Below, in pieces: positions 7,793 to 32,779 of a stretch of DNA of 64,000 nt. Source of the stretch: Bacteroidia bacterium (GTDB lineage Bacteria > Bacteroidota > Bacteroidia > AKYH767-A > 2013-40CM-41-45); the NCBI GenBank assembly GCA_038230515.1, contig JBBRND010000024.1, positions 845-64,844 on the forward strand, given 5' to 3'. Position numbers and translations under genes: made by a program. The stretch's first letter is position 1; every line of letters begins with the position of its first letter. The notes beneath the pieces are model-generated. The model had not been told where the DNA came from, did no database searches, and saw only the letters and a list, made by a program, of their open reading frames with translations.

Positions 7793-8740
7793 CTATTTCA
7801 GAAAATGACTTGCAAGAATAGACCCCCAAATGTGCCATATTTCAGTAGTGTGAGCAACAGCGGTTAAAATTTCTTGGCAAGAATTCAATATTGTTTTAAT
7901 TACAGGTTTAGCAGCTCTTTGTTCCAGTGGTTTCATAGCTTCTTGACTAAGAAAATTTATGTGTTCTAAATATTCTTGTTGTTGCTCCTGACTTATTACA
8001 ACGGAATCTTTCACAGCCTCAGCTAATTTCTCAAATGCCTTCGCAATATCATTCAGGCCCTCATTGTTAAGCGTCGCATTATTCTTTATAATATTATCTT
8101 GAATATTTCTCATGCTGAAAACATTGCCGTGACCTTGAATTGAAATGTTGTAATTATTTGTCGTAATTGAGTGCCCGCTGTAAGAATAAGAATCCTCTTC
8201 AACATATTCTATTCCCACCGTGGTTATGGATCCCATTGCATCATCGTGTTTCCCCAAAAATTGCACCATGCCATCTCCTTCTAATTTTTTCCCTAAAGAA
8301 AACACTTCATCAAAGTTTACTTCAACTCCATTGTTTTGAAGAATCCAAGTCAGTGAATAATACTTTCCGTCATGCTTGAATTCGTAAAGACCTTTTAGAA
8401 TCAGGTCAAGTTTTTCGGATTGTTTCATAGCTCTATTTGAATTTCCATTTCGTTCTTTTTGTTGCCGATATTTGTGTAATCCAATCTCTGCCGCCTTCCA
8501 ACCCTCTTGCGTAAGTTTAACCCTATACTTCTCATCTCCCCACCACGCTACAAGACCTTCATCAATTAGGTTATCTCTCATTAAAGTGTAATCAAACCAT
8601 TCATATTTTTTTTCTTCTGTAAAAAAATATGATTGCTGGTCTGTGTTCAAAGTGCCTTTATGTTCTGATAGAAGCATCAAAAGCAACTCTGCCATTTCGG
8701 TTTCAACTTCATTCATCTTTTTCCCTTCAGCTAAGTTCAT
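7793..8740 (-). CDS. Hypothetical protein, last gene of the DUF2188/AbiGi-like operon (possible AbiGii-like partner)
   Basis: 315-aa ORF 26 nt downstream of the AbiGi-like gene on the same strand. No recognisable motif. Confidence 0.4.
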   Translation of the reverse strand: MNLAEGKKMNEVETEMAELLLMLLSEHKGTLNTDQQSYFFTEEKKYEWFDYTLMRDNLIDEGLVAWWGDEKYRVKLTQEGWKAAEIGLHKYRQQKERNGNSNRAMKQSEKLDLILKGLYEFKHDGKYYSLTWILQNNGVEVNFDEVFSLGKKLEGDGMVQFLGKHDDAMGSITTVGIEYVEEDSYSYSGHSITTNNYNISIQGHGNVFSMRNIQDNIIKNNATLNNEGLNDIAKAFEKLAEAVKDSVVISQEQQQEYLEHINFLSQEAMKPLEQRAAKPVIKTILNSCQEILTAVAHTTEIWHIWGSILASHFLK

Positions 8741-8766
8741 TTTTTCCTTTTTGCAAATATCAAGAA

Positions 8767-9510
8767 TTACATGTCATCTCTGATTTGTTCAACGCTAATC
8801 AGTTTTGACACCAACAATTTTACTTCCGGTTTCGTAAAATTCTTCTTAAGATTCCTTTCAATAAAATCTACGAACTCTGGTATTTCTTCTTCGTCTTTTA
8901 CGATTATGTATTTAATATCCTTTGCCTTGAAAATAAGCTTCTCATTTTTTTGCATCAAGCCATTTTGCTTTTTCAAAAATTCATCGGTTACTTGTTTTTC
9001 CAAATACACACGAAATTTCTTTGGCGAATAACGCCATTCCCTTTCATCATAAAATGGCTTGAACTCCATTTTCTTACTTCGCTTATTTTGTCCAAGTCCT
9101 TCATATGCTTTAATGTATTTGTAAAAATCAGGGATTTGTTTTTCTAATACTTCCTTTTCACTTGAAGTTGTCAATGTTCTAAGTTGCATCCTGATTTCAT
9201 GAATCAAAGTAGCTGACATTGCATCTTTGGGAACATAGATGATTGGACTTATTCCATTCTGAATACCCCACCCTTTTTTACTCAAGCCAATTCCATAATC
9301 TCCATAAAAATCAATATGAGGAATAATTTGAGAAAATATCAAATCACAGAAACAAACCATTGGAACATGAGCAGTAAAATTTTTGTTGTCAGGAATAACA
9401 TTCCCCAAATCTTCCAAACTGTAACTTGGATAGAAATAGTTTTTCAGAACCCCTTTCAGGTTTTCTTTCCTGTCTGTAAAATGAAAAAGAGTATTTGCGC
9501 TTACGTTCAT
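8767..9510 (-). CDS. AbiGi-like abortive-infection protein (putative)
   Basis: 247 aa. N-terminal 'SANTLFHFT' motif and a length near the ~248-aa lactococcal AbiGi. Call is from recollection of the PF10899 family. Confidence 0.45.
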   Translation of the reverse strand: MNVSANTLFHFTDRKENLKGVLKNYFYPSYSLEDLGNVIPDNKNFTAHVPMVCFCDLIFSQIIPHIDFYGDYGIGLSKKGWGIQNGISPIIYVPKDAMSATLIHEIRMQLRTLTTSSEKEVLEKQIPDFYKYIKAYEGLGQNKRSKKMEFKPFYDEREWRYSPKKFRVYLEKQVTDEFLKKQNGLMQKNEKLIFKAKDIKYIIVKDEEEIPEFVDFIERNLKKNFTKPEVKLLVSKLISVEQIRDDM

Positions 9511-9512
9511 CG

Positions 9513-10052
9513 TTAAAAATTCTTGAAATAATTTAACAGGTGAACGACAGCTTCCTTGTATATTTTTTTTGCCTGCGACAACTTTCTTGATTCAATAGCT
9601 TCACAGGCAAGATTTATTTTCCTAAAAATTTCTTGAAATAATTTTTCTTTTCGCTTATCAACTTTCAAAAGTTCAACCAAACGAGGAGCTTTTGAATAAT
9701 ATTCTTGAATGAGGATTTTATTTTGAGCTGATTCGGACAAATATCCATCTCTGAACTTTCTTAGTGTTTGCAATTGGTAGCAATCATCTTTCAGTCCGTA
9801 ATATTTCACGCACGCAGTAGTCAGAAAGCAATTGCCATCTGGTTCACCTTCTTCGGGATTCCATGTTCTCTGAATCTTTCCATCTTTCCCATGAACAGCA
9901 ACGGTTAAGTTTTGATTTATTGCAATTGTTCGTGCAGCTTTCAATGCTTCAGCTTTTGTATTCTTAACCGCTGATGCCTTTTCATGACCATCTTTTTTTA
10001 CAACCCAAACATTCCCGTCCGGGTAAACCCTTATTGTTCTATATGCCATCAA
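9513..10052 (-). CDS. DUF2188-domain protein with a Cys-containing C-terminal extension
   Basis: N-terminal 'YRTIRVYPDGNVWVVKKDGHEKASAVKNTKAEALKAARTIAINQNLTVAVHGKDGKIQ' matches the DUF2188 pattern. Its start lies 3 nt from the AbiGi-like stop, so the two are likely an operon. Confidence 0.55.
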   Translation of the reverse strand: MMAYRTIRVYPDGNVWVVKKDGHEKASAVKNTKAEALKAARTIAINQNLTVAVHGKDGKIQRTWNPEEGEPDGNCFLTTACVKYYGLKDDCYQLQTLRKFRDGYLSESAQNKILIQEYYSKAPRLVELLKVDKRKEKLFQEIFRKINLACEAIESRKLSQAKKIYKEAVVHLLNYFKNF

Positions 10053-10445
10053 TCTTTTTTTTGTTCATACATTTTTACCAGTAGTAATCTGCTTCCAGAA
10101 ATTTCAAATGTAGCAGTATTAAATGACATGTAAAACGCACAACAGTAACATCACCAAGCGGATGCTCCACCTTTTGTCTCCGGAAATATTCTGATTTTCA
10201 TTTGGTTTTTTTAAATTCTTTTACTCCAGGAATAATGTATCGTCAACAAATTTATCCATCAATTGGAGATCGGGGGTATATTTTTTACTTAAAGTGAAAT
10301 TTTTAAAAACATCGAAAATCACCCGATTTCTTCTTTTATTAACTACTTCAACAATATTCAGAATATGAAGTGAAAATTTGCTTGACAAATAAATTCAGTT
10401 GGGATACACTGTTTCTGCTATAGCATTAACAATTTAATTACGAGA

Positions 10446-10620
10446 ACCGTTGCCCTTTAATGGGACATCCCGCCTTGCGGGATTGGAACGAACAACGGTC
10501 AGGCCAATCCTTTCATTGCTTTACTTTTTGATAAGCGTATGTTAGCTTAGCATTGGTTCTAATGCGATTTGATCAAATCTTTGCTTTTAGAACCATGTGT
10601 ACTACTCGCAAGAATAGTAC
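10446..10620. promoter_or_regulatory. Cluster of nested inverted repeats, including the perfect 14-bp palindrome GATTTGATCAAATC flanked by a 9-bp inverted repeat TGGTTCTAA/TTAGAACCA; candidate recombination or regulatory site upstream of the tyrosine recombinase
   Basis: Read directly in the sequence. The pairs are ACCGTTG/CAACGGT, ATCCCGC/GCGGGAT, TGGTTCTAA/TTAGAACCA, GATTTGA/TCAAATC and GTACTA/TAGTAC. Confidence 0.35.
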
Positions 10621-10665
10621 CGATTAGGCCCGCCCGGTTCGTTCCAGGCGGGTCTTATTCGTTGT

Positions 10666-11544
10666 ATGAATAAAATCATAAAAGAGTATTTAGAGTGGAA
10701 GGGGACTTACGCACCGAGAGCCAGTGTGAATTATAAAATTTGGCTTGACAGATTTGTAGAAGAGTGTGGTGAGAAACAACTTGACAGGTATGATGTATCT
10801 GACCTAGTAAAGTATCGCAATTGGGTGGAAGATCACTATAGTCCTTGCACAACTTCGCTGGCAATGGTTGTGATCAAAAATTTTCTTCAATTTTGTAAAA
10901 CACAAAATTACACCTGTCTCTCACCAACACTTGTCCGGCTGCCAAGAATAATTGCAAAATCTCATCGTGCTGTAACAGAGGACGAATTTCATAGAATCAT
11001 TTCTGTAATTCCTCAAAGTGAATTCATGTCGCTTCGAGATTTGCTCTTGATTCGCATGTTATGGGACACAGGAGTCCGTGTTTCGGAGCTTTGCGACCTA
11101 GATTTGTCTCAGATCAACGAAAATAAAAGATCAGCAGTTATTCAAACAAAAAAGACAGGAAAGAAACGAATTATTGTATGGTCTGAAGAGACACACAAAC
11201 TTCTTATGAAGTATGTACCAATGCGATTGGAGTTACACAAATTCAATCGTGCAAACGCACTCTTTATCGGATGGCGGAAGGGAAGGGGATGGAGTCTCCG
11301 GCTTACCACAAAAAGTGTACAAAGGACAATCAGATATTTTGTAGACCGAGCTGGCATCAAAGAAAAAATTACACCTCATAGTTTCAGGCATGGTTGGGCG
11401 CACAAGCGCAGAGATCAGAATGCTCCTCTTGCTTTTATTCAAAGGGGATTGGGTCACATAAATCCTATCTCAACTTTTGTCTACGAGCAATACAATGACT
11501 TGGAGTTTGAGAGAAATGCAAATACCTACTTAAAAGTAGCTTAA
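10666..11544 (+). CDS. Tyrosine site-specific recombinase (XerC/XerD-like small integrase)
   Basis: 292 aa. N-terminal SAM-like DNA-binding region. C-terminal catalytic motifs '...HSFRHGWAHKRRDQNAPLAFIQRGLGHINPISTFVYEQY' contain the R..H..R..Y residues. Confidence 0.8.
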   Translation: MNKIIKEYLEWKGTYAPRASVNYKIWLDRFVEECGEKQLDRYDVSDLVKYRNWVEDHYSPCTTSLAMVVIKNFLQFCKTQNYTCLSPTLVRLPRIIAKSHRAVTEDEFHRIISVIPQSEFMSLRDLLLIRMLWDTGVRVSELCDLDLSQINENKRSAVIQTKKTGKKRIIVWSEETHKLLMKYVPMRLELHKFNRANALFIGWRKGRGWSLRLTTKSVQRTIRYFVDRAGIKEKITPHSFRHGWAHKRRDQNAPLAFIQRGLGHINPISTFVYEQYNDLEFERNANTYLKVA

Positions 11545-11628
11545 TATTCCCAGCATATTCAATACTTTCGAACGGCATTTAAATAAAATGCCGTTTGCTT
11601 GTTTTTAATAACATAGGAACACTAGCCA

Positions 11629-14600
11629 TTATCGTGGTATTACTTTATACTTTGTGTCTCTTGTATCAAATGCTTCATAAGTTCCTTCCAAAATATCTAC
11701 CACTGTTTTATTGATAGTTGGATTTTCTAAGGCACCTGAATTGATTATTACTTTGTTCTTGTTGTGCTTCTCAATTTTAACATGAATGATTTGGTCTGCA
11801 TCACAAACAACGGCTAAGTTAGGGTTATGAGTCACAATAATGATTTGTCTTTTGTCCTTTGCTTTCTTGATAAACTGAGCAAGCAATTTGAAAACACTTT
11901 GGTTGTCCAAATTCTCTTCGGGTTGGTCAATCACTAGTGGAATATTGTTTTGGTCAAGTGCCAGATAAAAAATAAGAAGTAAAGCCCCTCGTTCTCCGGG
12001 GGACAATTCCGAAATATTTTTGTTGTTGAGTTTGAGTTTGTATGTCGGTTCTAAATATTCAAGCCCAAATAAAAAATCATAAAGTTCTTCCACTGAAAAA
12101 TCACTTTTCAACTGCTTTTCAATTTCTCTTTTTGGTCTGCCTAAACCTTCTCTCGTATCGTTTTTAAGATTATCAACTATGTCATCAAGCAAAGCAGTGA
12201 TTCCTTCTGCTGTTTTCCACTCATGCTGATTTAAAATTGAATTTAGTTTTTCTCTTCCCTCGGTAATTCCTATGAAACTGCCTTTTGCTCCTGCACTTAT
12301 TGGAGCAAAAAATCTATCTTCAAAAGCAGCCATTTTATTTTCAATGTCAAGTTTGATTTCATACTGTTCAAGAACTCCTCCGTAGCTTTCAATGAAGTCC
12401 GTTATCGGTTTGTAAAATGTTTTGTAAATATTCAGAATGTCATTTTTCTTTCCGAAAAGTTTTATCAGAATATCTTTTCTAAGAGTGGTTGCTTCTGAAA
12501 GGTCCGTCTTTAATTGTGTTTCAATGTATTTTAATTCTCCCTCGTAGTATTTCAAAGTTCCATATTGTTCTTCATCTCCTGTGATTGATTTTTCTATTGT
12601 TGTCCATTCAGCCAAATCATTTAAGTATTTCTGGAATTGCTTTGAAGGTTCATCTAATGTATTTTGAAGTATAGCTAACTGCTCTTTTAAAACCGATAAT
12701 TTTTTCGGCAAACTTTCTGTGTTGTTTAAATCTAAAAGTGTATTTATAGAAGTAAGTTCGCCTCTCAACTCTGTAATTTTTGAATTGATTTTATCACGGG
12801 TAATTTCAAACTTAATTACATCTTCAATATTTATTTCGTTTGCTGTTAGGGTTGGAGTAATTTCTCCTTTGATTTTTTGATACTGTGTTTCAAGTAAACT
12901 CAATGAACCTAAAATTTTTTCGAGCGAAGCGACAGAAACGTTAATCGCTTTCTGCTTGCCTGAACTTTCTGCAATTAATTTTTCTAAATCTGCCTGTTGT
13001 TTTCGTTTGGCTTCAATTTGAGCAGATACTTCTTTATTCTTCTCAACTATTTTAGGGTCACTTGGCGCTTCCTTTGCAGGAGTTTTGATTTGATTGTGTG
13101 CAAGCAAATCTTTTTTCTTCTGTTCCAAATTGCTTGCAAGTAGGTTCTTGTAAGAATCCGTATCTTTTTTTTCCAACTCAACAACTATTGCATTGGTCTG
13201 TTTTAAATCAAGCAATGTTTGGTCAATATCGTTCTGAATTGTATCTGTTCTGAACTTTGCTAACTCTTCTAAATTGTTCTTGCCAAATTTTTCTGCATCA
13301 GGAATGTGAGTGAAAATCACATTCCTTAATTCATCTTCAAAGTTCTCATGATTTTCATTGCACAATTTTTCAAGAAAACCTTGCGGAATGTATTTTACTT
13401 TTTCAATAGAAGTTGGATGAGGGTCGTTTGCTAAGTATTGTTCATCAGTTGTATTTGTTTCCCAAGTCAGATATGCATTGAAACTCTCTGCTCTGTTTGG
13501 TCTTGGTGCTCTGAATTTTGTTTTTCCCAGAAATGAAAAATCTCCACAATTTTGAGTGTTGCCAACTAAGCCAATGCAATCTGTCAATGCACTTTTTCCA
13601 TTTCCTTTGTTTCCGATTATTGCAACCAGTCCTGAATTGATTTCAACTTCTACATTTTCAAACCAAATTTCGTCAAGTCGTGAATCAGAAAGTTTTTGGA
13701 ACGAAAGTTTCTTGATGTATCGGTTGGGATTTTCATGCACTCGTTTTTTTAGTGGTGGCAAATCACCAACAAAAATTCTTGTGCTTTCATTTGCAACTTG
13801 TTTTAAGCCTTCAAAAGTTGTGTTTGCTTTTAGCCATGTAGAGCAATTACCAATTCTGTCTTTGTCTGCACTGTCAGAAAAATAATGTGCATCGCTGCAA
13901 TCAAGTAATTTATCATTTACATTTTGTTCGGTGAGTTTTTGTTTCTGCCTTTCATAACTGTCTGCACTTTCAAGTGCAGAGAAAACAAAATTTGCTTTGT
14001 TGATTACAGTTCGCTTTGTTCCTGGTGAACCGTCCCACCTCATTGTGTCCCACTCTGATTTTCCAACTGCTGTAAGAAACTTGTCCTTGAAAGTTGTTGC
14101 TTCTAGTTTTTGAAACAGAATTTCAAAATTGAAGGTTAAACTGTTGAAACCTGTTTTCAAATCTGAATCGCTGATTGACTTTGCAGATTTTTCTTTTACT
14201 TTTTTTCCAAGTTGAATAAGTGTGTCCGCTGTGACTATTTCATTAAAATCTTCTTCTGAACCATCAACATCAAACTTTAGTTTGTGTTGAACTGCATTCA
14301 AAAAATTTCTCTCAATTACATTTGCTGCAAGGGTGTCTGAAAAGATGATATGAAAATTTACTTTCTTCCAAGGGTCTTCTGAACCAAGTGAAGCAAATTT
14401 GTCAAGTCGTAATTCGATAACGGGAAGAATTAAATCAATGTTTTGCAATCTTCCTTTCAGTCTATACTCTAAAACTTTTCGATAGCCATCTAAAAATATA
14501 TAATCATTAATGCCAATCGCTTTAAATGTTGGCGGTAATTTTTCCAAATCAGTAATGAACTTTTCCCAAGCTGTTTCTGTGTCGCCACCATAACCTTGAA

Positions 14601-14676
14601 TAATCGAGCAAGGAGTATGAACATGCAAATCCCACTTACACCATTCTGACCCACGATGAAAATTTCTTTCGCTCAT
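11629..14676 (-). CDS. PHP-domain phosphoesterase fused to an SMC/ABC-type ATPase (Ppl-like single-gene defence candidate)
   Basis: N-terminal 'WDLHVHTPCS' and a later 'DCSDAHYF' His cluster, both PHP hallmarks. Walker A 'GNKGNGKS'. Long coiled-coil middle. ABC signature 'LSPGERGALL', Walker B 'LVIDQPEENLD' and His-switch 'VTHNP' at the C-terminus. Confidence 0.75.
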   Translation of the reverse strand: MSERNFHRGSEWCKWDLHVHTPCSIIQGYGGDTETAWEKFITDLEKLPPTFKAIGINDYIFLDGYRKVLEYRLKGRLQNIDLILPVIELRLDKFASLGSEDPWKKVNFHIIFSDTLAANVIERNFLNAVQHKLKFDVDGSEEDFNEIVTADTLIQLGKKVKEKSAKSISDSDLKTGFNSLTFNFEILFQKLEATTFKDKFLTAVGKSEWDTMRWDGSPGTKRTVINKANFVFSALESADSYERQKQKLTEQNVNDKLLDCSDAHYFSDSADKDRIGNCSTWLKANTTFEGLKQVANESTRIFVGDLPPLKKRVHENPNRYIKKLSFQKLSDSRLDEIWFENVEVEINSGLVAIIGNKGNGKSALTDCIGLVGNTQNCGDFSFLGKTKFRAPRPNRAESFNAYLTWETNTTDEQYLANDPHPTSIEKVKYIPQGFLEKLCNENHENFEDELRNVIFTHIPDAEKFGKNNLEELAKFRTDTIQNDIDQTLLDLKQTNAIVVELEKKDTDSYKNLLASNLEQKKKDLLAHNQIKTPAKEAPSDPKIVEKNKEVSAQIEAKRKQQADLEKLIAESSGKQKAINVSVASLEKILGSLSLLETQYQKIKGEITPTLTANEINIEDVIKFEITRDKINSKITELRGELTSINTLLDLNNTESLPKKLSVLKEQLAILQNTLDEPSKQFQKYLNDLAEWTTIEKSITGDEEQYGTLKYYEGELKYIETQLKTDLSEATTLRKDILIKLFGKKNDILNIYKTFYKPITDFIESYGGVLEQYEIKLDIENKMAAFEDRFFAPISAGAKGSFIGITEGREKLNSILNQHEWKTAEGITALLDDIVDNLKNDTREGLGRPKREIEKQLKSDFSVEELYDFLFGLEYLEPTYKLKLNNKNISELSPGERGALLLIFYLALDQNNIPLVIDQPEENLDNQSVFKLLAQFIKKAKDKRQIIIVTHNPNLAVVCDADQIIHVKIEKHNKNKVIINSGALENPTINKTVVDILEGTYEAFDTRDTKYKVIPR

Positions 14677-17981: not shown

Positions 17982-18881
17982 ATGGAAAATGCAAATCAAA
18001 CCGTTCAAACGCGTGATGTCTACGACATGGTCACTGAGCGCGTAATCACTCTTCTTGAAAAAGGAGTCGTGCCGTGGAAACAAACCTGGACTGAATCCGG
18101 TCTTCCGCAAAACCTCATTACCGGAAAGCCATACCGGGGAATCAATGTCTGGCTGCTCCTATCACTTGACTATCCGAAAAACTTCTTCCTCACATTTGCA
18201 CAAGCGAAAGAGTTAGGAGGGAATGTCAAGAAAAATGAGAAGGGACACCTGATTGTTTTCTGGAAGTGGATCGAGAAGGAAAACAAAGTCAGTCATGGGA
18301 TGGAGAAGATTCCTTTGCTGCGTTACTACAAAGTGTTTAACGTTGCGCAGTGTGAGGGTCTTCCTGAAAAAAAGATTCCCGAGACAACAAAACCCAATGA
18401 TCCGATTGGTGAATGTGAAAAGATCGTTGAACTCATGCCGAAGTGTCCTGAGATCAAGTTTACAGGCAGTCAGCCCTATTACAATCCAGTGCTTGACTTC
18501 ATCAACATGCCTAAGATAAAAGATTTCCAGAGTAGCGAAACCTACTACGAAACTCTTTTTCATGAGTTGGTACACAGTACCGGACATCAGAGCAGGTTGA
18601 ACCGAAAGGAGGTGACAGATTCCCGCTTTGGTAGCGCTCTGTATTCCATAGAGGAATTGACGGCTGAACTCGGTTGCTGCTACCTGAAGTCCTGTGCCGG
18701 TTTGAAAGAAGTTGTGCGGGATAACAACGTGGCATATTTGCAAGGGTGGCTGAAGAGACTACGTAGTGACAAGAAGTTCATTGTGTATGCAAGCGCACAG
18801 GCGCAACGTGCTGTTGATTTTATTCTGAATGTCATTCCTCGCAGCACTGATGAACCAATGGTAGAGGAGGTGTTATCATGA
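17982..18881 (+). CDS. ardC: ArdC-like antirestriction protein (ArdC-N ssDNA-binding domain + HExxH zincin domain)
   Basis: N-terminal 'VVPWKQTW...GKPYRGINVWLL' ArdC-N pattern. 'FHELVHSTGH' metallopeptidase motif. Confidence 0.75.
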   Translation: MENANQTVQTRDVYDMVTERVITLLEKGVVPWKQTWTESGLPQNLITGKPYRGINVWLLLSLDYPKNFFLTFAQAKELGGNVKKNEKGHLIVFWKWIEKENKVSHGMEKIPLLRYYKVFNVAQCEGLPEKKIPETTKPNDPIGECEKIVELMPKCPEIKFTGSQPYYNPVLDFINMPKIKDFQSSETYYETLFHELVHSTGHQSRLNRKEVTDSRFGSALYSIEELTAELGCCYLKSCAGLKEVVRDNNVAYLQGWLKRLRSDKKFIVYASAQAQRAVDFILNVIPRSTDEPMVEEVLS

Positions 18882-23895: not shown

Positions 23896-24966
23896 ATGAG
23901 CAGTTTATTTTATAAAAAATTATCTACAGCAAGAAAGATGTCAGGACTTTCTCTGCAAGAATTAGCTGATAGAACTGGAGTATCAAAAAGCGCAATTTTC
24001 AAATATGAAAATAATGAAATGATGCCCGACAGCGCGTCCTTGATCCGGCTTTCTGAGATACTGGATGTAAACATGGGATATTTTTTTAACGATGAATTAT
24101 CTGGCAATATAGAATTAATCGATATTGAATACAGAGAAGAATTCAAGTTGGGTGATACCGAAATTGATACCATAAAAAAAAATGTGGAAAATTACCTTGA
24201 GCGTCTTTTCGAGTTAGAGAAAGTTGCGGATGTTGCTCCTGAAAGATTTAAAAATCCAGTCGAGGGAATACGAATAAAATCTGTGAGTGATGTGACAAAA
24301 GCAGTGAAGGTACTGAGAAGAAAATGGCAGATAGCAACCACAGCTATTTCTAATGTAATTGGTTTGATTGAAAGTAAAGGTATAAAAGTTTATCAAATTC
24401 TTCAGTCGGAAAAATTCGAAGGATTTTCTGCCTGGGCGGGTGAAGTGCCGGTAATTGTTGTCAATGGAAATATCCAAGAAGTAACTCGAGTGCGCTTCAC
24501 AGCACTTCATGAACTTGGGCATATTGTATTGTGCGTTGAAGATGATTTATCAGATGAGAAGATTGAAAGGATCTGTGATGCTTTTGCTGGTGCGATGTTA
24601 TTTCCAGATGACTTGGTTGTTGCTGAACTCGGGAGTAATAGAAAAAAAATTTCACTCGAAGAATTAAAGTTAGTAAAGGAGAAATACGGAATATCCATTC
24701 AGGCAATTATGGTAAGGGCAGCAAATGTTTCAATAATAAGCTGGGATACATACAATAAATGGAAACAATATTATTTATCGCTGACAGGAACTAATCAAGA
24801 TTTTGGAAAATTTAGTTCTGATGAATCCCCAAAAAGATTTAGTCAAATGTTGTTTAATTGTATTGCGGAGGAAAAAATTTCAATTGCCCGTGCTGCAGTG
24901 CTATCGGATAAAAAAATTAGCACTCTTAAAAAAGAAAAAATAATACATGAATGCTTCTACAATTAG
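23896..24966 (+). CDS. XRE-family HTH fused to an ImmA/IrrE-type zinc metallopeptidase (COG2856-like)
   Basis: N-terminal 'LSLQELADRTGVSKSAIFKYENNEMMP' HTH. 'ALHELGHIVL' HExxH motif in the C-terminal domain. Confidence 0.7.
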   Translation: MSSLFYKKLSTARKMSGLSLQELADRTGVSKSAIFKYENNEMMPDSASLIRLSEILDVNMGYFFNDELSGNIELIDIEYREEFKLGDTEIDTIKKNVENYLERLFELEKVADVAPERFKNPVEGIRIKSVSDVTKAVKVLRRKWQIATTAISNVIGLIESKGIKVYQILQSEKFEGFSAWAGEVPVIVVNGNIQEVTRVRFTALHELGHIVLCVEDDLSDEKIERICDAFAGAMLFPDDLVVAELGSNRKKISLEELKLVKEKYGISIQAIMVRAANVSIISWDTYNKWKQYYLSLTGTNQDFGKFSSDESPKRFSQMLFNCIAEEKISIARAAVLSDKKISTLKKEKIIHECFYN

Positions 24967-24972
24967 AAATAT

Positions 24973-25359
24973 ATGATTGCTATCTTTAATGACCCCGATG
25001 ACATAAGCCTTTTCCGCGCTTCCATCAGAAAAAATGATGGGAGTGAACTTGATTTTTTTGTTTCGGATTTGACACTACATGAACATGGGAAATCCTTTTT
25101 TCTCAACCTAAAAATTGAGTTCGTTAAGGAGGTTTCATTTAACGGAGGTGAGATGAAGAGCATCGTAAATTTGTACCATGAGAACAACAAAAATTATTCA
25201 ATCGGTAATTGCTCGAATTTATTTTTTGCCCAGCAACATCATGCCCTTATAATAACAAACGATGCGATAATTGTGGCTATTGCAAGAAAGTATCGTTTAG
25301 AAGCCATCTCCACAAAGTATCTCAAAAAAACTCTCAGATTAATTTCAATAAAACAATAA
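24973..25359 (+). CDS. Hypothetical protein downstream of ImmA/IrrE (possible PIN-like/DUF4411-type partner)
   Basis: 128 aa with 'HALIITNDAIIVAIARKYRLEAIS' near the C-terminus. Only weak resemblance to PIN-like folds. Confidence 0.3.
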   Translation: MIAIFNDPDDISLFRASIRKNDGSELDFFVSDLTLHEHGKSFFLNLKIEFVKEVSFNGGEMKSIVNLYHENNKNYSIGNCSNLFFAQQHHALIITNDAIIVAIARKYRLEAISTKYLKKTLRLISIKQ

Positions 25360-25663: not shown

Positions 25664-26107
25664 ATGAAAAATAATACAATTAAATTTATAATTAACGACA
25701 AGCATTTTGAATCCGATGAACAGTACATTCTAGGTGCTAAAGTTCGGGCAATAGGAAACATATCGAAGGATGATGAAATCTTCCTTGCTATCAAACGCCC
25801 GTGGGAAGACGAGTCAATTGCTGATGATACGAAAGTTGATTTAGCGCGTCCCGGTATTGAACATTTCTTCTCCAAAAAACATGGCGAAGAGAAGTTGGTT
25901 TCAATTTATGTTGACAACATCGAAAAGAAAATCTCACGTGGTAAACACTCCGTTGCTGAGATAAAAAAAATCGGTGGTGTTCCTGCTTCATATGAATTGG
26001 AAGAGGTAATTGATGGAAAGCTCACACCGCTTGATGACAACGCAGTAGTGCTAATTAAAGGGGGTGAAAAGTTTTTCGGTCATGTTCGCGATGGTTCCTC
26101 ATCTTAA
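25664..26107 (+). CDS. Multiubiquitin-domain protein (ubiquitin-like modifier of a Bil-like / 6E-type conjugation system)
   Basis: 147 aa, predicted beta-grasp-rich, ends in '...KGGEKFFGHVRDGSSS'. Directly followed by E2-like and JAB-E1 genes. Confidence 0.5.
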   Translation: MKNNTIKFIINDKHFESDEQYILGAKVRAIGNISKDDEIFLAIKRPWEDESIADDTKVDLARPGIEHFFSKKHGEEKLVSIYVDNIEKKISRGKHSVAEIKKIGGVPASYELEEVIDGKLTPLDDNAVVLIKGGEKFFGHVRDGSSS

Positions 26108-26115
26108 TTTCAGCT

Positions 26116-26451
26116 ATGAACTTTGACGAGAATCAAATTGCCGAGTTAAAGCAGATAACCCCTGACCTGAGTTGTGCTCAGGAAGGGGGTTATAACTACA
26201 TCTTAATAAAAGATCTTCGCTTGCCTGATAATTGCAAGCCCGAAGTGGTTGATGCATTGCTGTGTTCAACACCAAGAGATGGTTACGAGTCAAGATTATT
26301 TTTTTCTGCACTGATTACCGGATGCCACCAAAGGAATTGGAATGGAAACATTCGAGTGTTAGAAGGAAACTGGTATGCAGTTTCTTGGAAGGTTCCGGGC
26401 GGGCTGAAGCTTGCTGAGATATTAATGGTCCATCTTAAAGCATTACGATGA
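26116..26451 (+). CDS. Prokaryotic E2-like (UBC-fold) protein, putative
   Basis: 111-aa ORF with conserved Cys candidates ('LLCSTPRDGY', 'ITGCHQRNW'). Its stop overlaps the JAB-E1 start (ATGA). Confidence 0.45.
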   Translation: MNFDENQIAELKQITPDLSCAQEGGYNYILIKDLRLPDNCKPEVVDALLCSTPRDGYESRLFFSALITGCHQRNWNGNIRVLEGNWYAVSWKVPGGLKLAEILMVHLKALR

Positions 26452-27783
26452 ATGAGAAATAAATACAAAGTATGGTTCAAAATACCAAAGCAAATTCATT
26501 TGAAGATGCTTGGTGATTTAAGAAGATCTCATTCGTTCGCTTACGAAAGAGTGGGTTTTTTATTTACGACTTCGAAGTTACTTTCAGATAACACCATTCT
26601 TGTTTTGGCAAAAGATTATTCTCCAGTCGATGATAAAAATTACATTGATGACAATAAAGTTGGTGCAAAAATAAACTCAACTGCTATTCGGAACGCAATG
26701 CAAAGAGTCATGGAAAATAACGAGGGGTGTTTTCATGTTCATTTGCACAATCATACAGGTGCTACCTATCCAAGCCGCACTGACGAAGTAGGATTACCAC
26801 CAGTAGCAAAAAGTTTCGCTAACGTTTCTCCGAATCAGGCGAGCGGAATTTTAATATTAAGCGAAGATTCTTTTTACGCATCAGTAATTTGTCCAAACGA
26901 AAAAAAATTTATTACTCCTGAATTGATTTCAGTTGTCGGTTATCCTCTTAATCTATGTTTCCCGGGAGCAAAAATGAATGCAAGAAGAAAATCACTCGAC
27001 AGGCAATCATTCCTCGGAGTAAAGTCTCAGCATGTTTTTGAAAACATAAAAGTTGGAATTATTGGATATGGAGGAGGGGGTTCTCACATTGGTCAGCAAC
27101 TCGCACATCTGGGGGTAAAGAACATTTTAATTTTTGATGACGACAAAGTTGAAGAAACTAATCTTAACCGTTTAATAGGTGCATGGTTTAGTGATGTAAA
27201 AAAAGCTGTCTTAAAAATAAATGTAGCCAAGCGAATTATTAAAAAAATTCTTCCTTCAGTTCAGATAGTTTGTATAAATAAAAGATGGCAGGAAAAAGCT
27301 GAACTTTTACAACTCTGCGATGTAGTTTTCGGAAGTGCTGATACTTATGCAGAACGTCAGCAATTAGAAGCTGAGTGTAGACGCTATCTGATACCTTTAA
27401 TTGATATCGGAATGGATGTGCATATATTGGATAATGCGTATGAAATGTCTGGACAAATAATTCTCTCAATGCCGGGTTCACCGTGCATGAAATGTTTTGG
27501 TTTTCTAACCGACAAAAAGCTGGCGTTAGAAGCAGCAAAGTACGGAGATGTCGGGGGAAGACCACAAGTTGTCTGGGCAAACGGTGTGTTAGCGTCTACG
27601 GCTGTCGGAGCATTTGTGGATTTAGCCACTGGCTGGACAAAGACAGAGGACAAACTTATTTATCTGTCATATGGTGGAAATAAAGGAACACTGGGTAACC
27701 ACATTCGATTGGAATATGCTGAAAAAATTTGTACTCACTATACATTTGATCAGTTAGGGGTACCTGTTTTTAAAAAATTCTAA
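26452..27783 (+). CDS. JAB/MPN deubiquitinase-like domain fused to an E1-like (ThiF/MoeB) adenylyltransferase
   Basis: JAMM motif 'HVHLHNHTGATYPSRTDE' in the N-terminal half. Rossmann 'VGIIGYGGGGSHIGQQLAHLGVKNILIFDDDKVEETNLNRL' E1 motif in the C-terminal half. Confidence 0.75.
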   Translation: MRNKYKVWFKIPKQIHLKMLGDLRRSHSFAYERVGFLFTTSKLLSDNTILVLAKDYSPVDDKNYIDDNKVGAKINSTAIRNAMQRVMENNEGCFHVHLHNHTGATYPSRTDEVGLPPVAKSFANVSPNQASGILILSEDSFYASVICPNEKKFITPELISVVGYPLNLCFPGAKMNARRKSLDRQSFLGVKSQHVFENIKVGIIGYGGGGSHIGQQLAHLGVKNILIFDDDKVEETNLNRLIGAWFSDVKKAVLKINVAKRIIKKILPSVQIVCINKRWQEKAELLQLCDVVFGSADTYAERQQLEAECRRYLIPLIDIGMDVHILDNAYEMSGQIILSMPGSPCMKCFGFLTDKKLALEAAKYGDVGGRPQVVWANGVLASTAVGAFVDLATGWTKTEDKLIYLSYGGNKGTLGNHIRLEYAEKICTHYTFDQLGVPVFKKF

Positions 27784-27825
27784 AATTTATTATTATTATT
27801 ATTATTCCATCTTATACAATAAAAA

Positions 27826-27852
27826 AAGCCACCCTGTTACGGATGGCTCTCT
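27826..27852 (-). terminator. Hairpin + A/T tract terminator remnant at the 3' end of the truncated paralog
   Basis: 'aaaaaaagccaccctgttacggatggctc' is an imperfect version of the perfect hairpin at 31646-31676. Confidence 0.4.
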
Positions 27853-27862
27853 GTAGCATGAC

Positions 27863-28105
27863 TCACTTGTTCGCTATCATTTTCCTGAGCATGCCGATCA
27901 CTTCTTGTAAGTGAACAGAATTTTCAATAATCACCGAGCAACTTTCACCACCCCAGAATTTCTGAATGGACTCTTTCAAATTCTGCACTTTAAGATGCAT
28001 GATAATCTTTCGCGTGTCTTTTTCTGAGTGCATGATGACAAGATCAATTTTGCTCGTGCGCACAGGAAAGGAGGCATCATGGGAAGACAGAGGTGGCCAC
28101 AACAC
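27863..28105 (-). pseudogene. C-terminal fragment (80 aa) of a paralog of the 31688..32779 gene
   Basis: The last 37 aa are identical to the 363-aa protein ('KESIQKFWGGESCSVIIENSVHLQEVIGMLRKMIANK'). About 90 nt are 100% identical at the DNA level, with identity decaying upstream. Confidence 0.55.
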
Positions 28106-28216: not shown

Positions 28217-29167
28217 ATGAAAAAAATCATTTTTATCAGCTATTCGACATTGGATAATGACAAGGTGGAGATATTAATATCTGAATTAAGCGCAACTGAA
28301 AATTTAACTCCTCTAGTGATCGCAGCAAATCGAGAAGCATTGAAGCCCCTGGCAAATAAAGTTGCTGAAGGAATTAATGGCTCTTGGGTCATCGTTCCTG
28401 TAATTACAAAAAAATCAATGTCAACTCAATGGCTCAATCAGGAAATTGGGTATGCTCAAGCGCGCGGAGTAAAAATTATGCCTATTGTTGAGAAGGGAGT
28501 GATCAACGACTTAAAAGGATTTATACATAAACAAATTGATCTCCCTTACACCTTCCTTTTATCTGATTCCGATCATAATAATGACAACTTTCGGGCTGCG
28601 ATAAAAACATTGATTAATGATCTGGAAAAACATTTGCCTATAGTACCTAAAGTTGAACCTGTCAAAACTCCATTTGAAAAAAGTCTTGACTTGGCGGACA
28701 TCGTAGAAAAGGAACAGAGTTATAAAAAGGAGAAAGAAAAATTTCTTGGTTCTCACACCGCATTTGAAATGGCCCAGCAGGAGGTTCTCACAAATATGTT
28801 CAAAGAAATAAGAGAAAAGATCAACGCGCTTCATACTAGGAAAATGTTTTGCGGTACCGAGGAAGATAATCTGCAGTTTTTGTTTATGGTCAACTGTGAG
28901 GGCTTCAACTTGGTTATTCAATTCTATTTACCTTATTTTAATTCCCTCCAGGAGTCCATACTTTACGTAAAATACATGAGTTCTTACGCTCAACCAAAAG
29001 AGGTTAAAAACATGCAATTCATTTTCGATAAAAACGAAGCGGGGCAAATAGGCTGGTTAAATCTAAAGCAGCGCAAACTTTATCTCTCGCAGCAAATCGT
29101 TGATGATGGCTTCGCCTGGATAGTCGAACAAGTCTCATTGAAAAGAAAGGGAATAACGGAACTTTAA
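28217..29167 (+). CDS. TIR-domain protein (N-terminal TIR/TIR-like ~140 aa + C-terminal domain of unknown function)
   Basis: 'KIIFISYSTLDNDKVEILISEL' first strand and 'VIVPVITKKSMSTQWLNQEIGYAQ' (S..W...E, putative catalytic Glu) match TIR/DUF1863 patterns. Confidence 0.6.
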   Translation: MKKIIFISYSTLDNDKVEILISELSATENLTPLVIAANREALKPLANKVAEGINGSWVIVPVITKKSMSTQWLNQEIGYAQARGVKIMPIVEKGVINDLKGFIHKQIDLPYTFLLSDSDHNNDNFRAAIKTLINDLEKHLPIVPKVEPVKTPFEKSLDLADIVEKEQSYKKEKEKFLGSHTAFEMAQQEVLTNMFKEIREKINALHTRKMFCGTEEDNLQFLFMVNCEGFNLVIQFYLPYFNSLQESILYVKYMSSYAQPKEVKNMQFIFDKNEAGQIGWLNLKQRKLYLSQQIVDDGFAWIVEQVSLKRKGITEL

Positions 29168-29185
29168 CAATATTGATCTGAAAAA

Positions 29186-30586
29186 ATGGAGGCCACCTTC
29201 TTTTTAAAAATAAAGATTAAACCCGAGTTTAGTTCAATTCAGGAAATTTGGAATGTGCTTTTTGATGCAATTTTATATGTCACAAAAACAGACATTCGAT
29301 TTACGCTAAGGATAAATACGCCAAAACGAATTTTTGGTCCCCAGGAATCTTTCCAGACTTCGTACAGGTTATTTTTTGATGTCATTTCTTTCACTCCCGA
29401 TGCAAATTATACGATAGTCAAAAAAATTATTTTCAGTGAGGAAAGTATCAGAGGACACTCAACCACTGATTCAGGTAGTTCCATCGACATCAAATTCAAT
29501 TCGATAGAATTTGAAATCGAAAATCAGTATTCAACTGAAGATGAAATTTTCTGCATGTATTACGGTAACGTAATTTCCTATAATGATTTTTACAAAGAGT
29601 ATCATCTTGATCCAACGCTTAAACCAACTTTTAAATTAGAGCGCAGAACTGAACCCTTTCATGTCCTCAATTCAAAAATTTCCATCAGACCCGAAATATA
29701 TGTGAACATAAAGGATAAAACGAAAGAGACCGTTTTCGGAAAAGAATCATTTATTAATATCAAGTGCGACTTGGATGTAGACGCAACCATTCACTGTGTA
29801 AACGTACTTGATTTAATTTTCTCATTCTATTACCGAAAAATGATTCAGTGCAATTTCATTAAATACCTAGTAAACAGAAAAGGCAAGATAGTTTACAAAA
29901 TATCTGACAACGTAGAAAATGAGCGATGCCCGACATATCATTTGGGAATGCAAAATAAGTTCATGCTTTTGTACAATATCAACTTTGAGATCATACAGAG
30001 TAATTATGAAACATTTTTTGACATTATAAACCTATACATCAACGCTTCCTACTCAAAAGATAACAAATCAAAATTTATTCTCCATTTTTTGGCGCTTGAA
30101 TTGTTGAAAGCAAAATTCGGGAACGAAGAGCGAAGCAATTTTATTTTCAAAAATATTAACTTGAAAAATCGAATCAGAACGTTTCTTATTGACTTGGCTA
30201 ATTATCTATCATTACAAGAAAAAGAAAGTAAAACACTTAATGAAAAACAGAGAGAAGATAATTTGACAACTGAAAAGGAAATGCTAACATGCCCCTCTAA
30301 AGTGGGCTATCTTGAGGACACAATAATTTTAAAGGCTATGAGCCATCAGTTTAAGCGATTGATGGATATCTATCCTATGGATCTGTCCAAATATGGGGTT
30401 GATTTACGGATATTAACAAAATTGCGTGGGAAAATATTTCATGGAAGCACATTAAAACCCATAGACGAAACAAATTTAAAAGAAATATGCGTTCGTGAAC
30501 GTCTTCCAAAGTTCATTACGGAATTGATTGTAAGGGTTATGGGTGGAAATCCTGAAAATTACAATCGAAATATTTATGACGGATAA
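29186..30586 (+). CDS. Hypothetical protein (466 aa), middle gene of the TIR / AlbA_2 cassette
   Basis: Clean ORF, 18 nt after the TIR gene stop. No recognisable motif. Confidence 0.5.
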   Translation: MEATFFLKIKIKPEFSSIQEIWNVLFDAILYVTKTDIRFTLRINTPKRIFGPQESFQTSYRLFFDVISFTPDANYTIVKKIIFSEESIRGHSTTDSGSSIDIKFNSIEFEIENQYSTEDEIFCMYYGNVISYNDFYKEYHLDPTLKPTFKLERRTEPFHVLNSKISIRPEIYVNIKDKTKETVFGKESFINIKCDLDVDATIHCVNVLDLIFSFYYRKMIQCNFIKYLVNRKGKIVYKISDNVENERCPTYHLGMQNKFMLLYNINFEIIQSNYETFFDIINLYINASYSKDNKSKFILHFLALELLKAKFGNEERSNFIFKNINLKNRIRTFLIDLANYLSLQEKESKTLNEKQREDNLTTEKEMLTCPSKVGYLEDTIILKAMSHQFKRLMDIYPMDLSKYGVDLRILTKLRGKIFHGSTLKPIDETNLKEICVRERLPKFITELIVRVMGGNPENYNRNIYDG

Positions 30587-30655
30587 GTTATTTAAGTTAA
30601 CATATCGATATATGAATAAATGATTTTAACTAAACCTCGCTGAAAATAATTTATC

Positions 30656-31618
30656 ATGGAAGATTACACCTCACGGATCTATACTCTTAAGGACATTCAG
30701 AATTTTATTGCGACTAAAGCTGAGGAAACTACTTACCTCGAATTCAAGGCGGCAGGAGGATTAAGTACTATGCCTTCGGTTAAGGACGAAATTACAAGAG
30801 ATGTTTCCTCGTTCGCAAATTCGGACGGTGGTCTTATTATATATGGTTTAATGGAAGCGAATCATATAGCTGATAGTCTTGACTTCGTGGACGGAAAGGT
30901 TTACACAAAGGAATGGTTGGAACAGATCATTGGGCGAATTCAAAGAAAAATACAGGGTGTTGCGATATACCCGATACGAGTCAACAATAATTTTAAAAAA
31001 TCAATTTACGTTGTAGAAATTCCACGAAGTGTTGATGCACCGCACAGAGCAGCTGACGGTAAATTCTATAGAAGAAGCAACTTTGTACGTACCATAATGG
31101 AGGAATACGAGATTCGAGACATGTATAGTCGGACAATTAAAACGGAGTTGGAAATTCTTGAACCAAAGGTAAATTCAAGAGGTGAAAGTTACTCTCAGGG
31201 GACGCTTGATAAATATCAAGTAAGTATGGACATTGAAATACAAAATATCGGTAAAGCGATAGAAAAAATGTATAAAGTAGAGGTTATAGTTCCAACCCAT
31301 CTTGTGAATACAACAGGCCTAATTTACACAACCCCCTTTTTTTCAAAGTTCTCTCGTACAGAAGGGGATTATGGAATTTATACTTTCCCTCACCAATCTG
31401 AGCTTTACCAAAGTGAGATATTCGCTGTGCCTAGTGCAAACTTTTTTATGACTCAACAGACATTTAATTTGTTGCAAACGCTGCCTATAATAATCAAACT
31501 CTATTTTTCTGGTGGGCAAAGAGAAAAAAATCTGTATCTCACAGAAAACCTGAAGCATAAGCCAAAGAGTGGTGGTATCGAGCACGATTTAAAAGAAGAA
31601 TGTTTCATGAAAGAATGA
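30656..31618 (+). CDS. AlbA_2 (Schlafen-like, 'divergent AAA') DNA/RNA-binding domain protein
   Basis: 'TYLEFKAAGG...VSSFANSDGGLIIYGL' and 'IYVVEIPRSVDAPHRAADGKFYRRSNFVRTIMEEYEIRDMY' closely match the AlbA_2 consensus. Confidence 0.7.
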   Translation: MEDYTSRIYTLKDIQNFIATKAEETTYLEFKAAGGLSTMPSVKDEITRDVSSFANSDGGLIIYGLMEANHIADSLDFVDGKVYTKEWLEQIIGRIQRKIQGVAIYPIRVNNNFKKSIYVVEIPRSVDAPHRAADGKFYRRSNFVRTIMEEYEIRDMYSRTIKTELEILEPKVNSRGESYSQGTLDKYQVSMDIEIQNIGKAIEKMYKVEVIVPTHLVNTTGLIYTTPFFSKFSRTEGDYGIYTFPHQSELYQSEIFAVPSANFFMTQQTFNLLQTLPIIIKLYFSGGQREKNLYLTENLKHKPKSGGIEHDLKEECFMKE

Positions 31619-31645
31619 GGCAGATCATAAAATCAGATTGGCACT

Positions 31646-31676
31646 AAAAAAAGCCACCCTGTGATGGGTGGCTCTC
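31646..31676 (-). terminator. Rho-independent terminator of the 31688..32779 gene (perfect hairpin AGCCACCC-tgtgat-GGGTGGCT followed by an A7 / U-tract on the minus strand)
   Basis: Perfect 8-bp stem read in the sequence. The T-run lies on the transcribed strand. Confidence 0.6.
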
Positions 31677-31687
31677 TGTAGCATGAC

Positions 31688-32779
31688 TCACTTGTTCGCT
31701 ATCATTTTCCTGAGCATGCCGATCACTTCTTGTAAGTGAACAGAATTTTCAATAATCACTGAACAGCTTTCGCCTCCCCAGAATTTCTGAATGCTCTCCT
31801 TCAGGGTTTTCACTACATGATGCTTCAGCAGCTTGCGAGAGTCCTTTTCGGGATGTTTAACCACAAGATCAATTTTGTTTTTCCTGAAATGAAAGAAGGC
31901 AAGGTTCCTATCTTTCTTTAGTGCGATGTAATACCGCTGTGGATTAAACTGAAGATGGCTATCGAACTTCAAAAGATCATCCTTAATGATTCGATACACA
32001 TTTTTAATTTCATCCGATACGCCCTCAAAGTGGGATGCCTCAGTTGCCGGTATTTTTTCTTTGACAACTTTTTCTTTGACCACCTTTTCCTTTTGATGGA
32101 GTTCAGTGTACGCAGGGGACAGAGTGCAAAAAGTATCTCCGTTACTGGAGTACCTTTTCAACGTAAGAGAATGCACGACCCGCCACGGTTGCGGATACAA
32201 CTGCTTAATACCATTTAGTTCTGGAAGTTCACTTTCAGAAAGCACCAGAATTGAGGTGTTGCTGACAATGATTTGTTTGATGAATTCAAAAATGTCAACA
32301 CCTTGGAGTCTTGCTTCCAACTCTTTCTTCGCTTCCTTGCAAATATATTTAGACAGTTCTTCGAGACTTTCCATCTCAATCAGGAAAAGGAAGAACCGTG
32401 TGAAGCGAGGAAAGATGTCCTTAAAAAAATCTTGGTCTGGCGTAACTGTATCTAAAAAATAAAACCTTGGTGTGTCCTCCATGTCGAGCATTACATTGTC
32501 CGGCAGGAAGTTGTTCTTGAATAAATTCTTACTCTTAGTCGGCAATGGAATAAGAATAGTCTGTTGACCGAAAAGAGTTCTGCAATTGTCCAGTACCAGT
32601 TTCTCGATCTCCTTTACTGATCGAAATTTCTTTTCGACAGGAGGGGTTGAGTAGCGATAATCTGTGGACAATGGGTGCAATGTGTTTCCCTTAAGTAAAT
32701 AGGAATTGCGTAAGTGATTTGTTTCTTTCTCAAAGGAAAGCTGCTGGCTGGTTTCAGCCAATGGTTGTTCTTTTTTCAT
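31688..32779 (-). CDS. Hypothetical protein (363 aa); the intact member of a locally repeated gene family
   Basis: Full-length ORF. The fragments at 20775..21218 (N-terminal part) and 27863..28105 (C-terminal part) are paralogous. Contains a 'KEKVVKEKVVKE' internal repeat. Confidence 0.55.
   Translation of the reverse strand: MKKEQPLAETSQQLSFEKETNHLRNSYLLKGNTLHPLSTDYRYSTPPVEKKFRSVKEIEKLVLDNCRTLFGQQTILIPLPTKSKNLFKNNFLPDNVMLDMEDTPRFYFLDTVTPDQDFFKDIFPRFTRFFLFLIEMESLEELSKYICKEAKKELEARLQGVDIFEFIKQIIVSNTSILVLSESELPELNGIKQLYPQPWRVVHSLTLKRYSSNGDTFCTLSPAYTELHQKEKVVKEKVVKEKIPATEASHFEGVSDEIKNVYRIIKDDLLKFDSHLQFNPQRYYIALKKDRNLAFFHFRKNKIDLVVKHPEKDSRKLLKHHVVKTLKESIQKFWGGESCSVIIENSVHLQEVIGMLRKMIANK

Follow-up and report, generated by a model that had tools for sequence, protein, structure and literature searches.

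We analyzed a window of 64,000 nucleotides (nt) of a Bacteroidia bacterium (assembly GCA_038230515.1, contig JBBRND010000024.1, positions 845-64,844 of the forward strand), in which three intact and co-oriented genes span positions 28217-31618 of the + strand. The genes are separated by intergenic gaps of only 18 and 69 nt and encode a TIR-domain protein, a protein of 466 amino acids (aa) that we refer to as X, and a protein with a Schlafen-type AlbA_2 domain:

28217-29167, + strand: TIR gene (gene 1), 316 aa
29186-30586, + strand: protein X gene (gene 2), 466 aa
30656-31618, + strand: Schlafen/AlbA_2 gene (gene 3), 320 aa

A previous reading of this DNA, done from the letters alone and hereafter called the sequence-only reading, had described these genes as one cassette and had proposed that they form a single undescribed defense system. 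The layout that it reported is correct, as the three open reading frames (ORFs), their orientation and both gaps were confirmed. Each of the three ORFs aligns over its full length with its own family, as shown through L002, a Logan contig that is 100% identical to the genes of the window. None of the three genes is therefore a pseudogene.

We measured the co-occurrence of the three genes by searching hidden Markov models (HMMs) of the three families against every ORF of 69 fetched loci. The families were found together in L002 alone, and no trio was detected outside this sequence in the collections searched. Since the three families distribute independently and the trio is present only in this sequence, the proposal of one three-gene system is not supported; the sequence-only reading had itself named a failure of the genes to co-occur elsewhere as grounds for rejecting it. 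Probably, although with considerable room for doubt, the 'cassette' is composed of three autonomous single-gene defense modules that lie side by side in a defense island on a mobile element.

Domains and candidate active sites of the three proteins

The product of gene 1 starts with a TIR domain, as the sequence-only reading had recognized, with a Pfam TIR_2 match well above the cutoff (E = 1.3e-8, 35.8 bits, cutoff 28). The domain covers approximately aa 1-138 and is followed by a helical hairpin (aa 152-207) and by a C-terminal alpha/beta sandwich that resembles frataxin (aa 212-310). The S..W...E motif, in which a catalytic glutamate had been suspected, is located as follows:

28430-28444, + strand: W72-x3-E76, candidate NADase catalytic Glu motif, translating to WLNQE

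The suspicion is supported by conservation, as all 33 family members share W72 and E76 without exception, together with Q71, N74, Q75, I77 and G78. In an alignment with the TIR domain of TLR2, the motif falls on the W..E region, and we take E76 to be equivalent to E642 of SARM1 and E208 of AbTir. Sequence comparison with solved TIR structures returned no significant match (best E = 0.048).

The TIR family comprises about 100 full-length relatives, mainly in Bacteroidota. We inspected 11 loci with full-length members (ten GTDB species genomes and L035) and detected no recurring neighbor. The flanking genes often run in the opposite direction or are separated from the TIR gene by more than 100 nt, and none of the 11 loci carries the X or the AlbA_2 family nearby. 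The only neighbor common to TIR-family loci is DnaK: in two related Bacteroidota metagenome-assembled genomes (MAGs; L008, 7056-8045, and L011, 8001-8954), the TIR-family gene lies directly 3' of dnaK with gaps of 66-78 nt, an unusual housekeeping neighborhood for a presumed defense gene. We rejected this upstream gene as a recurring TIR partner, because its identity as DnaK indicates synteny and not function. The gene 3' of the closest TIR homolog (L035) was considered as a relative of X and turned out to be an integrase. The same TIR domain (40-53% identity over aa 1-140) is also found fused to differing C-terminal regions in proteins of 147-287 aa (L013-L025) from Fibrobacterota, Spirochaetota, Leptospira and other Bacteroidota, a pattern that points to an exchange of sensor domains around a constant TIR core.

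The natural comparators of gene 1 are the single-protein TIR systems, including TIR-II, V, VI and IX, which have been validated in Escherichia coli (PMC11350192), and SpbK of Bacillus subtilis (PDB 9phb). Gene 1 shares with them the TIR fold, the conserved catalytic glutamate, the lack of a conserved partner and the location in a defense island. It differs in the hairpin and frataxin-like C-terminal module, for which no description was found in the literature examined, and in having no TPR, transmembrane or AAA domain. On these grounds gene 1 is best described as a predicted single-protein TIR defense variant and putative NADase, and the TIR family with a frataxin-like C-terminal domain, found mainly in Bacteroidota, becomes a concrete target.

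Protein X has no match in Pfam, PADLOC or NCBIfam, and the sequence-only reading had found no recognizable motif in it. However, X has an N-terminal beta-rich half (about 250 aa, Hcp-like, modeled with low confidence) and a C-terminal helical domain with a HEPN fold (approximately aa 258-455), which contains an RNase motif:

30425-30442, + strand: R414-x4-H419, HEPN RNase active-site motif of X, translating to RGKIFH

R414, F418, H419 and G420 are invariant in all seven members of the X family, the others being 19-51% identical to X. The family is small. A word-indexed search of 5.8 billion proteins returned X itself and two relatives at 48-50% identity, and four further relatives at 24-26% identity came from an exhaustive search of 1.84 billion representatives with HMMER. 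A scan of viral contigs for X found nothing, and a metagenome locus search with a three-member X alignment returned L036 alone, which is the same contig as L001. X matches no HEPN family in Pfam, where it has one insignificant non-HEPN match, and its relatives reach HEPN families below threshold (HEPN_Swt1, 0.0093; HEPN_Apea, 0.028; HEPN_MAE_28990, 0.14). A Foldseek comparison of X with the PDB yielded no significant match and did not recover the HEPN matches; Hcp alone appeared at a probability of at least 0.9. Matches to pentameric channels were discarded as topology artifacts (TM-score about 0.09).

We compared X with known HEPN RNases of abortive-infection and toxin systems, namely HEPN-MNT (8xdj, 7ae2), AbiV (9bj5), the HEPN domain of AbiA (8oz7) and Csm6/Csx1. 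Unlike them, X lacks a partner domain of the MNT, CARF or reverse-transcriptase kind, and its N-terminal beta-rich half accompanies none of the HEPN matches. A HEPN-MNT system was rejected, as no MNT is present and the neighbors of X are the TIR and Schlafen genes. X thus appears to be a very rare new family within the HEPN superfamily and a predicted RNase, and the family is another concrete target.

Gene 3 encodes an SLFN_AlbA_2 domain (aa 24-141; Pfam E = 2.2e-11, 44.7 bits, cutoff 25.3), in agreement with the sequence-only reading, followed by a C-terminal region of about 170 aa. This region is unannotated, is conserved within the family and is presumed to be a sensor. The domain carries the intact catalytic motif of Schlafen RNases:

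30725-30748, + strand: E24-x4-E29-x-K31, Schlafen catalytic motif Ex4(E/D)xK, translating to ETTYLEFK

E24 and K31 do not vary in 34 homologs of gene 3, and position 29 holds either E or D. The family profile matches the structures of Schlafen RNases (5yd0, 1.2e-6; SLFN5, 3e-6; and also SLFN12, 14 and 11), and the motif corresponds position by position to ESASIEFK of 5yd0. A paper from 2026 reports Ex4(E/D)xK as the catalytic motif of the prokaryotic Schlafen (pSlfn) nucleases, which are single-gene defenses composed of an RNase fused to varied sensor domains in 55 published architectures; one of them, RorSlfn5, cleaves tRNA once its Ig-like domain senses the tail assembly chaperone of phage T5 (PMC13056530). 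In an independent study, a Schlafen protein with an unannotated C-terminus was validated as an abortive-infection defense (PMC13552941). The motif, the family profile and the validated pSlfn proteins lead us to interpret gene 3 as an RNase effector that presumably carries its own sensor at the C-terminus, and not as the sensor of the TIR protein, thus revising the earlier view of it as a nucleic-acid-binding sensor.

By sequence, gene 3 belongs to the published pSlfn class and is a predicted RNase. It shares SLFN_AlbA_2 and the exact Ex4ExK motif with RorSlfn5 and EcoSlfn7 (PMC13056530) and with the Schlafen of Enterococcus lactis (PMC13552941), and further resembles the class in its fused C-terminal accessory region, its solitary occurrence in the other loci of the family and its island setting. 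The difference lies in the C-terminus, which in gene 3 carries no annotation. The family has 204 matches, mainly in Bacteroidota-named records and unlabeled metagenome contigs. Among 14 loci with a family member we found no recurring neighbor and neither the TIR family nor X; in many of them the gene is the lone + strand gene amid - strand genes. The family of gene 3 would therefore represent a Bacteroidota branch of the newly recognized Schlafen tRNase defense and a further concrete target.

AlbA_2 genes appear repeatedly associated with restriction-modification (R-M) genes. In L068 and L069 (5950-7642), two near-identical loci on IMG/VR contigs, the gene for a short TIR protein of 152-167 aa (TIR_2, 3e-12) precedes by 10 nt the gene for an AlbA_2 protein of 392 aa that belongs to another subfamily, and the pair interrupts a type I R-M operon between hsdS and hsdR. 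This subfamily of about 392 aa also has lone members, in L060, L061 and L062. In L022 (7995-13419, a Spirochaetota MAG), an AlbA_2 gene (395 aa) overlaps an MmeI-type R-M gene (1,056 aa) at the stop codon of the latter, and a 250-aa protein with the window-type TIR domain and another C-terminus is encoded 3.5 kb upstream of it. In L043-L045 (4410-6936), genes for PLDc_2, a short TIR_2 and an FRG-domain protein lie on the opposite strand beside a lone AlbA_2 family gene; within this island, the PLDc_2 and TIR_2 genes may constitute a TIR-PLD pair of their own. We read this loose recurrence of TIR near AlbA_2 (L068/L069, L022 and L043) as the result of island packing.

Probable autonomous modules and possible partnerships

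Each of the three proteins has its own complete effector site, and three sensor-effector fusions therefore fit the data better than a chain of sensor, adaptor and effector. A comparison among the three families with hhalign, seeking a common sensor domain, found no shared domain. By analogy with characterized relatives, the TIR protein would sense infection or oligomerize through its helical hairpin and frataxin-like domain, and would hydrolyze and deplete NAD+ through the invariant glutamate of its W-x3-E motif (E76). X may be activated through its N-terminal beta domain and then cleave RNA at the HEPN Rx4H site. The Schlafen protein would sense a phage protein with its C-terminal domain and cut tRNA at the Ex4ExK site, as RorSlfn5 does. 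We infer that each module would provide defense of the abortive-infection type. If these activities and triggers are as proposed, a plausible 'new three-gene system' breaks into known kinds of single-gene sensor-effector immunity, and the cloning of the wrong unit is spared.

The sequence-only reading had seen no likeness between the trio and any named multi-gene system, and our comparisons led to the same result: the cassette matches none. CBASS and Pycsar were rejected, as a search for a cyclase (CD-NTase/PycC) in Pfam, PADLOC and NCBIfam gave no match in the three proteins or in their immediate neighbors. Thoeris consists of a ThsB TIR protein and a ThsA-type effector, in types I-XI and 29 predicted configurations; the Thoeris survey reports TIR clusters that swap effectors, RNases included, sets aside stand-alone TIR proteins as non-signaling, and has a main text in which the words Schlafen, AlbA and HEPN are absent (bioRxiv 10.64898/2025.12.03.692087). 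Gene 1 resembles Thoeris in having an RNase-type gene immediately downstream and perhaps in its TIR domain, for which the PADLOC HMMs suggest a ThsB-like character. Membership fails, however, because no effector gene is conserved next to the TIR-family loci; moreover, the downstream proteins have no recognized signal-binding domain, as neither X nor the Schlafen protein contains a recognizable SLOG, Macro, CARF or SAVED domain.

Several observations weigh against fully autonomous modules. The PADLOC ThsB models are the best match of the TIR domain in 29 of the 33 family members (up to 9.7e-10), and for this reason a signaling role for the TIR protein is conceivable. The scores of the window protein itself are weak (PADLOC, 2e-4; Pfam ThsB_TIR, 18.6 bits, below the cutoff of 21.2). 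The scan for + strand terminators found none between the three genes, and the gaps are short. One shared transcript is thus possible and the trio may be co-transcribed: the first hairpin 3' of the trio, just past the Schlafen gene at 31654-31667, is the predicted - strand terminator of a DUF5655 gene. The scan of the region for sigma-70 promoters performed no better than on shuffled sequence, and the Bacteroidota -7 motif TAnnTTTG, searched for as an exact match, has no + strand site between 27749 and 31700; both terminator and promoter scans leave X without a recognizable signal of its own upstream. In addition, a single pair of direct repeats bounds the three genes, and the block may therefore have moved as a unit. 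Shared transcription or joint transfer is nonetheless not the same as one functional system.

A further hint of linkage comes from the genes next to X and its relatives. The upstream region is known in six contexts, four as DNA (the window, L001, L037 and L070) and two as gene lists (P0002 and P0124), and in all six a gene on the same strand lies within -20 to +20 nt upstream of the X-family gene. The spacing is a gap of 18 nt in the window, 20 nt in P0124 and 5 nt in L037, and an overlap of 1 nt in L001, 4 nt in P0002 and 20 nt in L070. This constant upstream gene hints that X depends on a partner, and the contexts are few, with two of them lacking DNA. Four upstream genes are full-length and encode proteins of 316-333 aa. 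The upstream protein is a Cthe_2314-type HEPN in L001 (HEPN_Cthe2314, E = 3.8e-7), a DUF5677 protein, also of HEPN type, in L070 (E = 1.8e-6) and a 326-aa protein in L037 with a Cys-rich HNH-type motif and a weak HNH_5 match (E = 0.0041, 17.5 bits, cutoff 27.5); in P0002 and P0124 the proteins have 333 and 332 aa. Downstream of the X relatives we found HEPN_LA2681, or EVE and Mrr-type proteins. None of the five relatives with recoverable neighbors has a window-type TIR or AlbA_2 neighbor, and no nucleotidyltransferase was found in the X contexts.

L037 offers a wider view of such a neighborhood. Between 2457 and 11683 of this JGI metagenome contig lies a long co-directional island in which nearly all gaps are shorter than 35 nt. 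The order is an MmeI-type R-M gene, genes for proteins of 333 aa and 271 aa, the HNH-like 326-aa gene, the X relative, a 328-aa EVE-domain protein, a 392-aa Mrr_cat-like protein and a serine recombinase.

The alternative that survives best is that TIR and X form a two-gene system to which the Schlafen gene does not belong, X being a modular HEPN partner behind a swappable upstream effector or sensor. In a Thoeris-like version of this model, a signal derived from ADP-ribose and made by the TIR protein would bind the N-terminus of X and switch on the HEPN RNase. The close upstream gene in six of six contexts, the absence of an own terminator or recognizable promoter upstream of X, the ThsB-like character of the TIR domain at the HMM level and the swapping of effectors, RNases included, in the Thoeris survey all favor such a pair. 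However, the other 11 full-length TIR-family loci are without X or any conserved partner, and the proteins encoded upstream of the X relatives are related neither among themselves nor to the TIR protein. Furthermore, tight spacing is not specific to X, because every gene of the L037 island has equally short gaps, and no recognized ligand-binding domain, of the SLOG, Macro, CARF or SAVED kind for example, is seen in X. We consider this pairing unlikely, although it deserves to be kept in view. A more general proposal concerns the X family as a whole, which would never act alone and would be a promoterless 'piggy-back' partner coupled to an upstream effector-type gene in modular two-gene systems. 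We regard this proposal as rather unlikely. If it were true, the window would hold a new TIR-HEPN pair, possibly signaling via the N-terminal Hcp-like domain of X, and the link between X and changing effector genes upstream of it would amount to a new rule of modular pairing.

Autonomous defense modules are also a better account than a function outside defense. That the three genes are inactive relics, or toxin-type addiction modules that stabilize a mobile element, would agree with the location of the region on an integrative or conjugative element (integrase and ArdC) and with the gene remnant beside the cassette, a sign that the locus is decaying or recombining. The three ORFs are, however, full-length with intact family-invariant catalytic residues, the families occupy defense islands elsewhere, and relatives of two of the genes have been experimentally validated as defense, which makes this explanation improbable. 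Similarly improbable is a genuine three-gene system, in which the TIR, X and Schlafen-like proteins would jointly fill the roles of sensor, adaptor and effector: the three genes share one orientation, lie close together without a terminator between them and are bracketed as one block by the direct repeats, and TIR-Schlafen proximity recurs loosely (in L068/L069, which count as one locus in two near-identical copies, and over 3.5 kb in L022), but the trio is found in this one sequence only, an active site in each protein is atypical of such a division of labor, and in other loci both the TIR and the AlbA_2 families occur autonomously. The L068/L069 pair was considered in favor of a TIR-Schlafen system and was rejected as strong evidence, as its subfamilies differ from those of the window and it lies inside a type I R-M operon, consistent with island packing.

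The flanking repeat and the defense island

The sequence-only reading had noted that near-identical copies of a sequence, about 90 nt at 100% identity decaying to about 70%, flank the three genes. We recovered these copies with a repeat search, which aligned 260 nt at 82% identity; within the alignment a core of 91 nt is 100% identical and identity then decays to about 70%. Both copies include the 3' end of a DUF5655/PDC-S18 gene and a terminator hairpin:

27817-28076, no strand assigned: left direct-repeat copy, with terminator hairpin 27823-27852 and the 3' remnant of a DUF5655/PDC-S18 paralog
27863-28105, - strand: 3' remnant of the DUF5655/PDC-S18 paralog, 80-aa ORF
31642-31901, no strand assigned: right direct-repeat copy, with hairpin 31654-31667 and the 3' end of the full-length DUF5655/PDC-S18 gene
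31688-32779, - strand: full-length DUF5655/PDC-S18 gene (PADLOC PDC-S18, 1.1e-14; Pfam DUF5655, 3.8e-5)

The terminator hairpins of the two copies differ solely by compensated changes. Homologous recombination or gene conversion at the conserved 3' end of DUF5655 genes is suggested by two features, namely the truncated paralog and the abrupt drop in identity from 100% to about 70%. The block was thus probably gained or reshuffled by recombination at this 3' end and its terminator, and the pattern of the repeat fits the gain of a cassette, for example by a circular intermediate that integrates in the Campbell manner. DUF5655 genes may in this way offer, in their conserved 3' ends and terminators, recombination sites for the exchange of defense cargo.

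The wider setting is a defense island on a mobile element, in line with the dense island that the sequence-only reading had described. In addition to PDC-S18, its members include AbiGi, an integrase, an SMC-like ATPase, ArdC, an RmrA-like protein and a multiubiquitin/E1 operon:

Within 7793-14676: AbiGi (PADLOC, 5.3e-48); the adjoining 315-aa gene may be AbiGii
10666-11544: tyrosine integrase
11629-14676: SMC/AAA ATPase of 1,015 aa (Ppl, 2e-20; mads_3, 5e-17)
17982-18881: ArdC

The combination of AbiGi, integrase, SMC/AAA ATPase and ArdC indicates that the island lies on an integrative or conjugative element. Two further loci occur between ArdC and the three genes. The first (23896-25359) encodes an RmrA-like protein with a helix-turn-helix and an M78 peptidase (PADLOC RmrA, 2.1e-45) and is followed 6 nt later by an unannotated ORF of 128 aa; together they are a candidate RosmerTA-type toxin-antitoxin defense pair. 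The second is a ubiquitin-like conjugation operon directly upstream of the cassette (25664-27783). It encodes a Multi_ubiq protein of 147 aa (PF14452, 6e-10), a 111-aa ORF without a match at the position expected for an E2, and a protein of 443 aa that ends in a ThiF/E1 domain (PF00899, 1e-30). PADLOC matches just the E1 part of its CBASS Cap2-like E1-E2 models to this operon, which looks like a conflict system of the '6E'/Bub type.

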